Below, piece after piece: positions 1 through 63,391 of a DNA stretch of 64,000 bases; the first letter of the stretch is position 1; each line of letters opens with the position of its first letter. The notes beneath the pieces were generated by a model that saw only the letters and a program-made list of their open reading frames with translations, made no database searches and was not told where the DNA came from. A program made the position numbers and the translations under genes. This DNA comes from Mobula hypostoma (lineage: Eukaryota): the NCBI RefSeq assembly GCF_963921235.1, contig NC_086097.1, forward strand, positions 28,088,001 through 28,152,000, given 5' to 3'.

Positions 1-172
1 TGTTATTTTGAAACTGTAAAAGATGGAAATAAAAAAGTAATCTTGCTTAAAATATTAAAGTATGTCATCTTTAACTTTATGCCTTTTGGAAATCAGATCA
101 TCTTTTACTCACTTAGCTATTCACAGTAACAGATTTTTTGACCGGGGGTACCCAAACTTTTGCATGCCACTG
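1..172 (+). mobile_element. Terminal segment of a Tc1-like DNA transposon (cut by window start)
   Basis: Ends ...CCCAAACTTTTGCATGCCACTG followed by TA, the typical Tc1 terminus and target dinucleotide. Confidence 0.65.
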
Positions 173-174
173 TA

Positions 175-1228
175 GGAGCAGAAGTAGGCCATTCGGCCCA
201 TCGAGTCTGCACCCCCATTCAATCATGGGCTGATCCAATTCTTCCAGTCATCCCCATTCCACTGCCTTCTCTCCATACCCTCTGATGCACTAACTAACCA
301 AGAACCTATCTCAATGACTATCTTAAATGCACCCAATGACTTGGCCTCCAGAGTCGCTTGTGGCAACAAATTCCACAGATTTCCCACCCTCTGACAAAAG
401 TAATTTCTCTGTACCTCTGTTCAAAATGGATGTCCTTCAATCCTGAAGTCACATCCTCTTGTCCTAGACTCCCCTACCATGGGAAATAACTTTGCCATAT
501 CTAATCCATTCAGGCCTTTTAACATTCTATGAGATCCCCCCATCATTCTCCTGAACTCCAGGGAATACAGCCCAAGAGCTGCCAGATGTTCCACATATGG
601 TAATCCTTTCATTCCTGGAATAATTCTTGTGAATCTTCTCTGAACCTCCTCCAATGTCAAAAATAAAATTCTAAAATAAAAAGCCCAAAACTGCAAACAA
701 TACTCCAAGTGTGGTCTCATGAGTGCCTTACAAAGCCTCAACATCACATCCCTGCTCTTATATACTATACCTCTAGAAATGAAACGCAACTTTGCATTCG
801 CCTTCTTCACCACTGACTCAACCTAGAGGTGAACCTTTTGGGTATCCTGCACAAGGACTCCCATCTCTGCATTTTGAATTCTCTCTCCGTCTAAATAATA
901 GTCTGCCTATTTATTTCTTCCAAAGTGCATGACCATACACTTTCCAAATTTGTATTTCATTTGCCGCTTCTTTGCCCATTCCCCTAAACTATCTAAGTCT
1001 CTCTGCAGGCTCTGTTTCCTCAACACTAACTGCTCCTCTACCCATCTTTGTAACATCAGCAAATTTAACCACAAATTCATTAATCCCATAGACAAATCAT
1101 TGACATACATTGTAAAAAAACAGCAGTCCCAACACTGACCCCTGTGGAACTCCACTAGTAACCAGCAGCCAGCTAGAATAGGATTCCTTTATTCCCACTC
1201 TGTTTTCTGCCAATCAGACAATGCTCCA
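175..1228 (-). mobile_element. CR1-clade LINE 3' fragment (degenerate RT C-terminus and 3' UTR)
   Basis: ORFs 421-813 and 907-1155 carry CR1 ORF2 motifs (RPHLEYC..FW, LEEVQRRFTR, KCMVMHFGR). Confidence 0.85.
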
Positions 1229-58000: not shown

Positions 58001-59531
58001 AACTTCCCAATCCTCTATCTTCCCACTAATTTTTGCTTTGTTGTATGCCCTTTCTTTTGCTTTTACAATGGTTTTAACTTCCCTTATCAGCCATGGTTGT
58101 ACTATTTTACTATTTGAATATTTCTTCATTTTTGGAATACTTGTGTCCTGCACCTTCCTCATTTTTCCCAGAAATGCACCCCATTGCTGCTCTGTTGACA
58201 TCCCTGCCAGCAGCTCCTTCCAAGTCACTTCAACTCCTCTCTCATACCACTGTAATTTCCCTTCATCGTCATCAGGTGCCCTGCCCAGTTTGAGCTTTGA
58301 CTGCCATGGCCCACACACTGCTGTTTCGGGTCAAGTGGATCAATTCATTGGTATTCATTTCCAGTTCTCTGGCTGCTGTCTCCTTCATCTCTTTCCTAAT
58401 CACATGTCCAATGAAGTTACGTTGCTGTTTCATGATGTCATACATTATTTTTCTTTTTGTGTTTGCTCTGTTCATGACATCCTCATTAGATATTCATTTC
58501 ATCCATGATGTTCTTTGCATCCTCCTCAAAAACCACATCTCTGCTACTTCAATTCATTTCCTCATGTTACTAGATATTGTCCAACATTCTGAGCAATATA
58601 ACATAACTGGATAAACAGTACTCTGAGGCGGGTTGTCATGCCTAATTTAGTGTTGGTCAGTATACTCTTCATTCTCGTAAAGATATCTTTTGCCATCCCT
58701 ATTCTTCTTTTGATGTCCATGTCGCACCTGCCATCTGATGTCACCCAGCTTCCTAAGTAGCAAAAGTTCTGTTCTTGTTTTATGTCTTCCCCGTTTATTC
58801 TCAGCCTACAGATAGGATTCTCCTTCTTTTTGGATATCACCATACATTCTGTCTTTTAACAATTGATAGATAGACCCATTTTTGCACTTTCTTCAACAAC
58901 TATATCAATGAAGTTTTGTAGTTCTTCCTCCGTACTTGCAATTAACATAGTGTCATCCGCATATCTGAAATTATTGATGTTTTCACCACCAACTTTGATT
59001 CCCAAGACGTCTCTTATTTTTTGTAATATTGTTTCACTGTACACATTAAACAAATCAAGGGAGAAAACACACCCTTGTCTAACGCCTCTTGATTTTTGTT
59101 AACTGACTCACTTCTCCATCTATTCTTACAGCAGCAGTTTGTTCCCAGTACAGATTTCTGATTAGGCGGAGGTCTTTTGAATCTAGATCTAGAGATTCCT
59201 ATAATATTTCAAATAACTTATTGTGCTTCACTTTATCAAATGCTTTTGTGTGGTCGATAAAACAAATCTTTTTGCACCTGAATAGCTCGTTCTGATAGTA
59301 AACAGAGGAGCTTTTTACCAGTGATATTCTTGATTTGTTGATGTAACCTTTTTGGATCAGTAATAGGGATTCTTTCTATTTGCTCACAATCCTGGTTTAA
59401 CCATTCTTCTTTGGCTTTTTGACATAAGCTTTTAACCTTTTCATCTAAGGACTTATATTCTATAGGATTTTCTTTCTTCTGTCTCCTTTCTTCCATTAGA
59501 TCTTTGATTTCATCTGTCATCCTTTTATTCT

Positions 59532-60689
59532 TTATGTTTTTTTTTCTTTTTTGGGAATCACTGACTTTGCTGATTCTACCAAGGCATCCTTTAGAGAGTT
59601 AAACTTAATTTCTACATGATTGCTATCATCTTCAACAGATTCTATTTCTAGACTTTGAAATCTATTCCTTACTTCAATTGTAAATTTTTGTCTTAAGGTT
59701 TCTTCTTTAATTAATTGCAAGTAGTCAAGGGATTGTTCAGGTTTTTGCTTCTTTAGTTTTTTAAGTTTTACTTTTACATGACATATTACTGGGTTATGGT
59801 CACTATTACAGTCTGCACCTGGATATGTTTTGCATTGAGACACTGAGTTTCTAAATCTTTGGTTTATAGTAATAAAGTCAATTTGATTTCTGGTGTTATC
59901 ACCTGGACTTTTCCAGGTCCACAAGCATCTTGGATGGTTTTTAAAGTAGGTATTCATAATGACCTGATTATTCATCTTGCACCATTCTACCCATTTCTCT
60001 CCTCTTTCATTTCTTTCCCCTAGTCCAAATTTTCCTATGGTATTTCCATCAGCACCTTGTCCTACTTTAGCATTTACATATCCTATGACAATAACAATAT
60101 CTTGAGATTTGCATCCATTCTTTGCTTGTTCAAGCTCTTCATAGAATTTATCTATATCCTCATTTGTTCCATCTGTTGTTGGTGCATATACCTGTATAAT
60201 TGCTAAATCAAATGGTTGTCCTCTGAATCGAACAAGGAGCACTCTTTCTGATATTGCCCAATGTCCTAAAACACTTTTTGCCATGTTTTCATCCATAAGA
60301 ATTCCTACTCCATTAGTATGGGATGTTCCACAAGAATAAGTTAGTGTTTTATTTCTATTCTGACATGTTCCAGCACCTGTCCAACGAACTTCGCTAATTC
60401 CCATGATGTTAATCTTTAGTCTTTCCATTTCATTTATCACATTGTCTAATCTTCCTGCTTGATATGGGATTCTTACATTCCAAGTGGCAATAAATTTCCT
60501 TTGTGTTACTTGAATTTTATGAGCAGTAGCTTGATGACGGTCGGGGATCCCCTGCTGACCAGAATCAACCCTACCGAGCGAAGCATCTTCAGAATTGTCT
60601 TGAAGATCCTCTTGACGCTGTTGTTGTGTGATACATTTTGTGAGTTTGACAATGGTTTTCTTAGCAAATAATTCTAGGAAACCTAGTAT
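59532..60689 (-). CDS. RTE ORF2 N-terminal part (AP endonuclease), AUG-less start, broken by a frameshift
   Basis: The frame of ORF 59532-60440 stays open 83 more codons to 60689 (preceded by TAG) and includes FIATWNVR. Confidence 0.8.
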   Translation of the reverse strand: MLGFLELFAKKTIVKLTKCITQQQRQEDLQDNSEDASLGRVDSGQQGIPDRHQATAHKIQVTQRKFIATWNVRIPYQAGRLDNVINEMERLKINIMGISEVRWTGAGTCQNRNKTLTYSCGTSHTNGVGILMDENMAKSVLGHWAISERVLLVRFRGQPFDLAIIQVYAPTTDGTNEDIDKFYEELEQAKNGCKSQDIVIVIGYVNAKVGQGADGNTIGKFGLGERNERGEKWVEWCKMNNQVIMNTYFKNHPRCLWTWKSPGDNTRNQIDFITINQRFRNSVSQCKTYPGADCNSDHNPVICHVKVKLKKLKKQKPEQSLDYLQLIKEETLRQKFTIEVRNRFQSLEIESVEDDSNHVEIKFNSLKDALVESAKSVIPKKEKKT

Positions 60690-60822
60690 CTAGCAACGGT
60701 GGTTTGATATTGCCTACCGTTGGGTGAACTAAAGAAATCACCATTTCTCTTCCCAGATGTTCATCCGCCTGTACTATAGCCGTTGACATTTGAGGTCCTA
60801 GCTCATCTGCCTCCTTCGTCAT
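60661..60822 (-). CDS. Short RTE ORF1-like upstream ORF (53 aa) overlapping ORF2
   Basis: MTKEADELGPQMSTAIVQADEHLGREMVISLVHPTVGNIKPPLLDTRFPRIIC*; overlaps the ORF2 frame by 29 nt. RTE elements are known to carry such short overlapping first ORFs. Confidence 0.55.
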   Translation of the reverse strand: MTKEADELGPQMSTAIVQADEHLGREMVISLVHPTVGNIKPPLLDTRFPRIIC

Positions 60823-63391
60823 AAGTTCAGTTACTGAACCTGCCGGATCTACCGTGGGCCTTCGCTCGTATCCTGAGCAGGAACCCTTGCAGGTGCTACC
60901 GTTCCGGGTCAGAGTGGCCCTGGGAGTAATGAATGACTAAGGGGTAACTCCACTTTCCCCAAAGCTCTGAAAGTCCCCAATCAGAGCCTCATCACCACTT
61001 GCAGTTTAGAGTCATACCCAGGACTGATTTCACTTACTCCACTGAAATACTGCTACATCAGACTTTACTTTCTCTCTATCAAATTTCAAGTTGAACTCAA
61101 TCATATTAGGCATTAATAAAAGCCAAAGAGAGGGAATATAACTGAGCAAAAATTAGTAGGAGGTTAGATGCTTGGCAAACTTTCAAATACCAACAGAACA
61201 CAACCAAAAAAAAGTCATTAAGAAGGTAAAGATGGACTATGGAAGTAATCTTGACAATAATATTAAAGAGGATACCGAAAGTTTCTTCAGAAGCATGAAG
61301 TATAAAAGAGAGGCGAAAGTGGATATTGGACCGCCGGAAAATGATACCGGAGAGGTAGTAATGGGGGACAAGGAAATGTCTTATGAACTGAATAAGAATT
61401 TTGCATCAGTCTTCACTGTGGAAGGCACTAGCAGTATGGTGGAAAAGCCAGTTATCGGGATCATGAATTGTGTCAAGTGTGCCAGGGGAGAAGGTTCTAG
61501 GGAAACCGGAAGGTCTGAAGGTAGATAAGTCACTTGGACCAGATGGTGTGCACCCCAGAGTTCTGAAAGAGGTAGCTGAAGAGATTGTGGAGGCATTAAT
61601 AACGATCTTTCAAGAATCATTAGATTCTGGAATGGTTCCGGAAACCTGGAAAATTGCAAAAGTCACTCCAGTCGTCAAGAAGGGAGTGAGGCAGAAGAAA
61701 GGAAATTATAGGCCAGTTAGTCTGATGTTAGTGGCCGGGAAGATGTTGAAGTTGATTGTTAAGGATGTGGCTTCAGAGTACTTGGAGGCACATGATAAAA
61801 TAACCCGTAGTCAGTATGGTTTCCTGACAGATCTGTTGGAATTCTTTGAAGAAAATACAAGCAGGAAAGACAAAGGACAATCAGTTGATGTTGTGTACTT
61901 GAATTTTCAGAAGCCCTTTGACAAGGTGTCACGCATGAGGCTGCTTAGCAAGATACGAGGCCATGGTATTACAAGGAAGATTCTAGCATGGATAAAGCAG
62001 TGGCTAACTGTCAGGAGGAAAAGGGTGGGAATAATGTGAGCCTTTTCTGGTTGGCTGCCAGTGGCTAGTGGTGTTCCACAGTGGTCTGCGTTGGGACCAA
62101 TTCTTTTTATGTCATATGTTAATGATTTGGATGATGAAATTGAGGGCTTTGTTGCAAAGTTTACAGACAATACGAAGATAGGTGGATGGACAGGTAGTTT
62201 TGAGGAAGTAGAGAGACTACAGAAGTACTTATACAGATTAGGAGAGTGGGTAAAGAAATGCTAGATGGAAATACAGTGTCGGGAAGTATATGGTTATGCA
62301 TTTTGGTAGAAGAAGTGAAAGGGTTGTCTATTTTCTGAATGGAGAGAAAGTACAAAACTCTAAGGTGCAAAGGGGCCTTGTGCAGGATTCCCTAAAGGTT
62401 AATTTGCAGGTTGAGTCTGTGGTGAGGAAGGAAAATACAATGCTAGCATTCATTCCAAGAGGAGTAGAATATAAAAGCAAGAACGTAATGTTGAACCTTT
62501 TTAAAGCACTGGTGAAGCCTCACTTGTGTGCAGGTTTGAGCCCTTTATCTTAGAAAGGATGTGCTGAAACTGGAGAAGGTTTAGAGGAGGTTTTCTGAAA
62601 ATGTTTCCAGGATTGAACGACTTGTCATATGAAGAGCGTTTGATGGCTCTTGGGCCTGTGTTCACTAGAATTCAGAGGAATGAGGGGTGACCTCATTGAA
62701 AACTATCGCATGGTGAAAGGCCTTGACAGAGTGGATGTGAAGAGGATGTTTCCTTATGGTGGGAGAGTCTAAGACCAGAGGATACAGCTTCAGAATAGAG
62801 AACTGTTTTTTAGAACACAGATGAGGAGGAATTTCTTGAGCCAGGGAGAGGTGAATCTGTGGAATTTGTTGCCACAGGCCAAGTCTGTATGTAAATTTAA
62901 GGCACTGGTTGATAGATTCTTGATTGGTCAGGGCATGAAGGGATACAGGGAGAAGGCAGGATATTGGGGCTGAGAGGGAAATTGGATCAGCCATGATGAA
63001 ATGGCAGAGCAGACTCAATGGGCCAAATGGCCTAATTCTGCCCCTATATTTTATGGACACTTGTGGAATGTCCTAACAGATATTCAGACTGTGTTGGACG
63101 TTGACACAAATTACTCCCTTCACTGTATGCTTTGAAATACATGTGACAGATAAAGCTTATCTTTATCCTTCTATTTCATATGTAAAGGACTAGAAAGGTG
63201 GCCAAAACACAATAACCTGCATTTACAGCAAAACAAAAACAAACTGCTCAGTGGGTCACAAAGCAACTGTGGAGGCAGAGTCATGGTCGGTATTTTGGAC
63301 CAAGATCCTATAATGAGCATGAGTTGCCGTACCAGACCATGATGCAGTCAAGATACTTCAATCTGTAGAAATTCATTAGAGCATCTGATGC

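Follow-up and report, generated by a model that had tools for sequence, protein, structure and literature searches.

The element and its family

The element lies on the minus strand of the 64,000-nucleotide stretch of Mobula hypostoma DNA analysed in this study (the window), and its features are collected in Table 1. It is one of several hundred young copies of an RTE LINE, and the region singled out by the first-pass annotation forms the 5' end of a repeat for which a first look at the 3.48-Gb genome gave 1349 candidates. By its CR1-type repeats and CpG decay, the genome looks vertebrate-like. Full copies of the family are approximately 3.35 kb long, end in a GAT repeat, carry target-site duplications of mostly 11 bp and encode an APE-type endonuclease and a reverse transcriptase. 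The length of target duplications in RTE elements has been reported to peak at 10-12 bp (PMC4245944). Thus, the two enzymes, the short-repeat 3' tail and the duplication length fit the RTE clade, a placement judged from these three features. The copies differ by 3.3% from their majority sequence and form a star-like tree (49 copies, after removal of a truncated copy and a segmental duplicate). RTE elements are known for their wide spread between animals.

Large internal deletions with both ends retained were seen in L046, L059, L060 and L067. The upstream open reading frame had been described as a 53-aa ORF; this length is peculiar to the window copy, and from the same start no stop is met within 100 codons in 21 of 36 copies. 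In some copies, the start codon of this frame is GUG or ACG. Throughout, nt 1 denotes the first G of the element (G1, window position 61024, minus strand; nt 3 of the earlier annotation), so that nt n equals 61025 - n.

Table 1. Features of the element and of related RNA structures (window positions unless a locus is named)
Feature	Position	Strand	Basis or remark
Whole element	58264-61024	minus	inserted in CR1-like repeat; carries two internal deletions
3' GAT-repeat tail and downstream target-site duplication	58255..58273	minus	
Reverse transcriptase remnant	58856..59098	minus	PF00078 E 7.3e-13, above gathering
APE-type endonuclease region, main ORF	59793..60494	minus	PF14529 E 1.5e-5, PF03372 E 2.6e-4, both slightly below gathering
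Upstream ORF	60661..60822	minus	53 codons here; overlaps main ORF start in another frame
Remaining 5' UTR with the further helices proposed in the first-pass annotation	60823..60882	minus	family-specific; no SINE counterpart
Two small conserved hairpins (nt 118-126; nt 131-142)	60883..60907	minus	SINE comparison
Second pseudoknot, revised: nt 73-78 with 110-115, 6 bp	60910..60952	minus	SINE comparison
Three-way junction domain (closing helix, GGCUCUGA hairpin, GGGG/CCCC hairpin)	60926..60997 (nt 28-99)	minus	SINE comparison
Coremin-like H-type pseudoknot	60995..61024 (nt 1-30)	minus	family pairing, phage covariation
Two variable bases between target-site duplication and invariant G	61025..61026	minus	
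Upstream target-site duplication	61027..61035	minus	9 bp, one mismatch to downstream copy, read directly
Pseudoknot of other RTE-like elements	L073:187-222, L075:31-67, L079:72-108, L074 about 146-185		

A sharp 5' end preceded by two variable bases

The position of the 5' end was examined in loci chosen with an internal-segment query that omitted the first 124 nt; the best 40 of 865 candidates were taken, and 39 loci were fetched after the window's own was set aside. Of these, 38 extend to nt 1-4 and one begins at nt 10. The uniform ends agree with the first-pass annotation, in which the RNA itself was suggested to define the 5' end. The first base is G in 44 of 51 distinct copies, and a contig of another organism likewise starts at G1. 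Genome-wide, 403 copies match a pattern of nt 1-27 with 16 fixed bases (control, 0) and 299 match the exact 23-mer at nt 81-103, which indicates no excess of copies broken within the first 100 nt.

In 16 of the 21 copies with both ends, 2 nt separate the target duplication from G1; the others have offsets of -1, -1, -6 and a weak +2, in addition to the truncated copy. In a stricter recount, the offset was -2 in 11 of 16 copies, and two of the others tie between -2 and 0; for the window copy, the best offset is also -2, at a low score. The first-pass annotation had thus rightly put the boundary some 2 nt ahead of the first helix, and the two bases in between vary among copies, with 11 different dinucleotides in 51 copies. 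Genome-wide, the base at -1 is A or G in 215 cases, T in 116 and C in 5 of 336. CpG decay was rejected as the sole cause of this scarcity of C, since approximately half of the internal CpGs survive. The types of extra bases showed no association with shared mutations (p = 0.34, at the low power of a star-like tree). Moreover, full-length copies have the regular spacer, and the sole 5'-truncated copy, L059, is without it. A structured RNA lies at the sharp 5' end and probably defines it.

The pseudoknot at nt 1-30

All ten segments quoted in the first-pass annotation are present where it had placed them. The complementarity that it saw in the 204-nt region is real and not above chance (minimum free energy -70.8 kcal/mol, z = -0.83, equalled by 43 of 200 shuffles), and thermodynamic z-scores do not set the 5' region apart. 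A search of the window region against Rfam with E up to 10 gave no match, and a near-consensus copy gave five weak, unrelated matches far below gathering. Because the region folds no better than shuffles and has no Rfam match, a fold drawn by eye on one decayed copy could not settle the structure. The comparison of copies upheld a structured 5' end, and its main part, a knot at nt 1-30, was not in the fold as drawn.

The knot consists of a stem of nt 1-3 with 12-14, a loop beginning at C4 and a second stem of nt 8-10 with 22-24, and the A-rich linker ends in AAAC. Past a 2-nt bulge, the second stem is extended by four more pairs (nt 4-7 with 27-30), so that it is either bulged by 2 nt or limited to three pairs. 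Pairs 1-14, 2-13 and 3-12 form in 44, 47 and 47 of 50 copies, respectively, and pairs 8-24, 9-23 and 10-22 are kept in 47-50 of 50. In the window copy, substitutions at both nt 27 and nt 28 make this extension weaker.

Self-cleaving ribozymes are known at the 5' ends of non-LTR elements, with HDV-like ribozymes in R2, L1Tc and some RTE elements and twister variants in Perere-3, and Ruminski 2011 reportedly lists RTE families with predicted ribozymes. They and the LINE knot share a place and a job, that of an RNA structure setting the 5' end beside the target-site duplication, but their catalytic motifs are absent here. Of the HDV consensus (L3, P1.1 and a catalytic C in J4/2), the L3 pattern occurs in 0 of 39 copies and no G follows the candidate P1; the hammerhead core (CUGANGA ... 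GAAA) occurs in 3 of 39 in mutated form, without an Rfam match. The twister L4-type pattern (UAA cleavage loop, L4 ending AAGC; consensus as given in Table 1 of PMC8501958) is found in 2 of 39, also mutated. The statement of the first-pass annotation that the sequence fits none of these three classes therefore holds. A hairpin-ribozyme reading of the starting GUC was rejected, the motif occurring in 0 of 39 copies. It is highly improbable that a distorted HDV-like ribozyme lies here, in which nt 1-7, with a G-U first pair, would pair with nt 149-155 after a 3-bp stem with an 8-base loop: a loose descriptor recovers this arrangement in more than 18 of 39 copies, but besides the missing L3 pattern and Rfam match there is no G after the helix for P1.1 and no A-containing J4/2, and the pairing competes with a hairpin conserved in the SINE described below.

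A homologous SINE and the junction domain

Searches of prokaryote assemblies with the LINE 5' end gave 21 matches, of which 20 were chance and one (L103) was a homolog. From its repeat content, L103 is likely animal-like DNA binned into a bacterial MAG. The MAG contigs C16, C52 and C61 (L103, L106-L143) contain long animal-like stretches rich in a headed SINE, likely host contamination. The bin gave 53 matches, from which 47 pieces were recovered, 33 of them near full length. This invertebrate SINE has a 75-nt head, then the LINE 5' domain from the first G, then an AT-rich tail. The head looks tRNA-derived, yet ARAGORN found no tRNA in 11 loci; it is kept in 30 of the 33 copies. In the 5' domain, 106 of 134 aligned positions (79%) are identical between SINE and LINE, and the shared region ends at about nt 142-143. 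SINE bodies made from RTE 5' UTRs have been described (PMC5786205), and the homolog is likewise a headed SINE with this 5' UTR as its body; a 15-base stretch behind its domain is identical by eye to the RTE-like sequence printed there for Ceph-SINEs. The passages of that paper on RTE-derived SINE bodies give no structure or function for the 5'-terminal part. In the genome of the window, the SINE query returned 40 matches of similar score, and a two-arm variant pattern for diverged families gave no match.

In the SINE, the second stem of the knot is unbroken and shows the compensatory change of G8-C24 to A8-U24, and U22 is replaced by A in 24 of 27 copies. The full core is intact in only 1 of 33 SINE copies, as compared with 33 of 51 LINE copies at 3.3% decay. 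Several further arrangements were noted in the MAG contigs. Short inverted duplications of the 5' domain occur in SINE copies of L136 (about 965-1220), L127 and L133; L136 contains a SINE variant that is nearer to the LINE and retains U22; and L137 has two junctions, at about 1139 and 1810, where a LINE-like 3' end meets the SINE domain at approximately nt 40.

The SINE also allowed the helices that the first-pass annotation had proposed to be compared between two families. Its junction held up: 4 of the 9 pairs of the closing helix are changed in the SINE and all still pair, the GGGG/CCCC hairpin is unchanged, and the GGCUCUGA hairpin has one one-sided change, to which an alignment with the gap in the loop adds three two-sided changes. 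A global alignment of the two sequences put gaps in the wrong places in hairpin B and in the knot, and the two-sided changes there rest on the gap-in-loop alignment. Overall, 5 of 5 alignable changed pairs in the junction helices are kept (p = 0.0014 against randomly placed substitutions, from one two-family comparison). The outer helix P1 and the AGUGG/CCACU pseudoknot did not survive the same comparison; in each, both pairs that are changed in the SINE are broken, and one C of the pseudoknot is also used by P1. The GGGUU/GGCCC helix requires a C that is absent from the family majority. A revised pseudoknot of 6 bp keeps 6 of 6 pairs in both families with two one-sided changes, having been derived with both families in view and not blind. 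Of the small hairpins, that at nt 131-142 has the stem ACCU/GGGU and a four-base loop that differs between LINE and SINE. Two other readings of this region were rejected, namely a C/D box or kink-turn, both boxes being altered in the SINE, and an HCV-type IRES, the likeness to which is limited to one hairpin with a four-base loop and has no Rfam match.

Relation to the coremin motif

The 20-nt coremin motif is printed in PMC10520033. With four loop bases allowed, 15 of its 20 positions, AAACU included, are identical by eye in the LINE knot. With the coremin xrRNA-C of BNYVV RNA3 and cucumoviruses (PMC6546385, PMC10520033, PMC5869530), the LINE shares the GUC/GAC hairpin, the C-G closing pair, a C first in the loop, an A before the last loop base, the spacer end UAAACU, the optional fourth pair and a helix right after the spacer. 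Moreover, Xrn1 or XRN4 makes a viral RNA that carries coremin at its 5' end (PMC5869530), and the LINE knot likewise lies at the 5' end. The reported halting point of Xrn1 lies one base upstream of the coremin hairpin (PMC10520033); one base before a four-pair hairpin maps to -2, where the LINE copies begin. The product end predicted from coremin would thus match the duplication edge, provided that the two bases are copied from the donor; their types show no association with shared mutations (p = 0.34, low power).

According to PMC6546385, coremin needs A16, A17, C18, U19 and A20 as well as a second hairpin, and a fourth pair is optional. The U19A change, which is the change found in the SINE, abolishes resistance, and the mutants described in the passages on A20 include A20U, but not A20G. 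In the LINE, the 5' hairpin of 3-4 pairs with a pyrimidine-purine closing pair is present, as is the spacer A15-A17, C18, U19 (33 of 51 copies; 403 genome-wide). A second hairpin after the spacer is provided by the predicted closing helix of the junction, 3-5 nt past C24 and with 9 of 9 pairs in the SINE; in this model, the closing helix substitutes for the hairpin that coremin requires. Two coremin rules fail, and this speaks against a roadblock: nt 23, which corresponds to A20 and faces U9, is G in 50 of 50 copies, and of the loop consensus YG(N)nAD the first, second-last and last bases fit, whereas position 2 is U instead of G. The LINE knot also differs from coremin in its eight-base loop, in the ordinary base pairs that join this loop to the 3' strand over 3 to 7 positions, and in its place at the first base of a LINE and not in a viral UTR. 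A Watson-Crick form of coremin, xrRNA-WCC, for which the same H-type knot is proposed (PMC10321173), has the same hairpin and spacer and a canonical loop-spacer pseudoknot, but its loop has four bases opening with a required G and its second stem has 3 bp, whereas the LINE loop opens with C and the stem is longer. The alternative of a class 3 xrRNA (ST9a, luteovirus type) was rejected by eye, the stacked P1/P2 stem-loop of about 54 nt, the T-loop and the 3-9 bp pseudoknot described for it (PMC12397905) being absent at nt 1-54. With the loop G and A20 rules broken, the LINE knot is treated as a coremin variant and not filed as a member. By analogy, it most likely works like coremin.

A phage counterpart of the knot

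A pattern of the bases common to LINE and SINE at nt 3-21 was run on viral contigs and matched 14, all of which had GT ahead, which was no part of the pattern, and the loop complement behind. LINE nt 1-24 are identical to one variant of this phage motif. Two further scans that left the loop free gave at least 243 loci, with 185 distinct 28-mers among the matches listed. Of these 185, 149 variants have every one of the four free loop positions paired with nt 23-26, as compared with a mean of 59 and a maximum of 73 in shuffled controls and 0-1 in slid registers, and the five pairs with the highest mutual information are the predicted pairs. When, conversely, the second stem, G1, G12 and A20 were held constant and the other positions left free (110 variants), C3 was recovered in 107, C4 in 105, C14 in 104, A18 in 102, A19 in 106 and C21 in 100, and pair 2-13 covaries. 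Furthermore, a fourth pair, -1/15, forms in 139 of 194 phage copies among the matches listed, against 64 expected. The recovered bases and the optional fourth pair correspond to those described for coremin (PMC6546385). Thus, the phage core is a genuine pseudoknot.

The phage copies are intergenic, with only 3 of 194 lying within a same-strand open frame, and a gene starts downstream of 115, against 30 on the opposite strand (both among the matches listed). This place and orientation are as expected of a decay shield. Annotated intergenic examples come from phages of Synechococcus, Corynebacterium, Mycobacterium, Bacillus, Nostoc, Arthrobacter and Staphylococcus; weak Vibrio matches sit in coding sequence. 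The knot was also seen directly 5' of a tRNA gene (L403) and of DUF2800 RNA (L406), which fits the marking of RNA 5' ends. Rfam has no family for the phage knot in scans of 10 and 20 phage loci. The phage form has an unbroken 6-bp second stem and usually no strong helix behind it (-2.2 kcal/mol against -1.6 when shuffled), whereas the RTE form is bulged and followed by a conserved domain of 115 nt. Searching viral contigs with the LINE protein found nothing, separate pattern scans gave no match in viruses or metagenomes, and two contig sets contained no usable covariation.

How the 5' end may be set

The explanation that we favour, at a probability of about 0.55, is that host 5'-3' exonucleases trim read-through transcripts to a roadblock at the knot and that the junction domain aids cap-independent translation or protein binding, as suggested by sequence comparison. 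Transcription would carry upstream host sequence or start upstream of G1. After decapping or an upstream cut, and by homology with coremin, XRN1 or XRN2 would eat the leader and halt at the knot, at -2. At the DNA level, the copies are inserted with a sharp 5' end at this position. The junction domain (nt 28-142) may then let translation start at the downstream AUGs without a cap, bind the RTE protein or do both; it would be needed for initiation, since an uncapped RNA presumably cannot be scanned through the knot. Coremin blocks scanning approximately five-fold, and xrRNAs in 5' UTRs go with IRESs (PMC10520033). An IRES-like role of the modelled domain is plausible. The agent proposed here is a host exonuclease and not the RNA itself, as it is in the 5' ribozymes of other non-LTR elements. 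A block of reverse transcriptase was rejected as the end-setter, as copying would halt at the 3' side of the knot.

Several observations speak against this explanation. The second stem of the RTE knot is bulged or limited to three pairs, the phage copies have little of a second hairpin, and the comparison covers two animal families. The two extra bases also bear on it. If they were an XRN overhang, they should be inherited from the donor, and their 11 types and, at low power, their lack of a link to shared mutations speak against this. Untemplated addition explains them without XRN. Untemplated bases also belong to the proposal of a new class of self-cleaving ribozyme, made up of the knot with or without the junction domain, whose cut would lie immediately 5' of G1, the two bases being added by reverse transcriptase. 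We consider this unlikely, although the sharp end at an invariant G and extra bases that are variable and apparently new would be explained, and precedents in RTE elements exist (twister in Perere-3, PMC8501958; HDV-like, cited in PMC5786205). The SINE, which must keep its head, has lost U22, and such a loss in a copy that keeps its promoter head fits a silenced ribozyme at least as well as a roadblock. However, no Rfam ribozyme matched, neither the HDV L3 nor the hairpin-ribozyme motif was found in 39 copies, and in the published assays of the motif that the core matches, from the text of PMC10520033 and PMC6546385, enzyme-free RNA serves as the undigested control. The 27-nt core is also below the size of natural ribozymes, all of which are, to our knowledge, larger.

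Many LINEs transcribe from internal promoters, and such a promoter could fix the start near G1, the knot only protecting the RNA after decapping or being a leftover. A fixed start would need no upstream transcription, and the two bases could again be untemplated. This is quite unlikely: copying of the cap predicts an excess of G at -1, and among the first 100 cases with a purine there, about 18 are G, which is no excess; ribosomes scanning from a cap would be held up by a coremin knot at that end (five-fold, PMC10520033); and it is left unexplained why the first base opens a virus-type motif.

It is very unlikely that the main role of the knot and junction is to bind the RTE protein for finishing the 5' junction, nuclease resistance being incidental. 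A SINE dependent on the RTE machinery retains the entire 140-nt domain, the R2 protein binds a 5' pseudoknot (PMC6765202), and the 2-base spacer is regular in full-length copies and missing in 5'-truncated L059; nevertheless, the identity with a motif of phages and plant viruses, whose hosts are without RTE protein, would be unexplained. The RNA end would still need another mechanism, and protein binding is compatible with the exonuclease roadblock.

Four RTE-like elements from metagenomes share another compact H-type pseudoknot where their mutual similarity begins (Table 1), with a short C/G stem, a second stem of 7-9 bp and a GAGAAUA linker, followed by a conserved small hairpin motif. In shuffle tests, this knot was equalled in 0 of 20 for L073 and L079 and in 4 of 20 for L075, and the search missed L074. 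The coremin core was absent from ten RTE-like metagenome relatives with upstream DNA. A different pseudoknot at the apparent starts of other RTE families suggests that ends set by exonucleases may be general in the clade.

Significance of the knot at a LINE 5' end

In the open-access full texts searched, no natural coremin or other xrRNA was placed in a retrotransposon and no coremin in phages. The structure described here is a coremin-like variant fold in a new setting, at the first base of an animal LINE. It bears on how RTE elements obtain a precise 5' end without a recognisable ribozyme. Tentatively, and at slightly less than even odds, host XRN stalling at a coremin-type knot common to plant viruses and phages, combined with an uncatalogued IRES-like junction domain, would be a third way to make the 5' end of a LINE, beside internal promoters and self-cleavage. 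The natural variants, through their ordinary base pairs, supply the covariation of the pseudoknot that is missing from the coremin papers. A 30-base XRN block, if it works in animal cells, could help to stabilise RNA templates. The xrRNA literature cited here contains viral examples only; an instance in an animal retrotransposon with hundreds of copies would bring chromosomal elements into the class and tie xrRNAs to the phage motif. If true, xrRNAs would not be confined to viruses.
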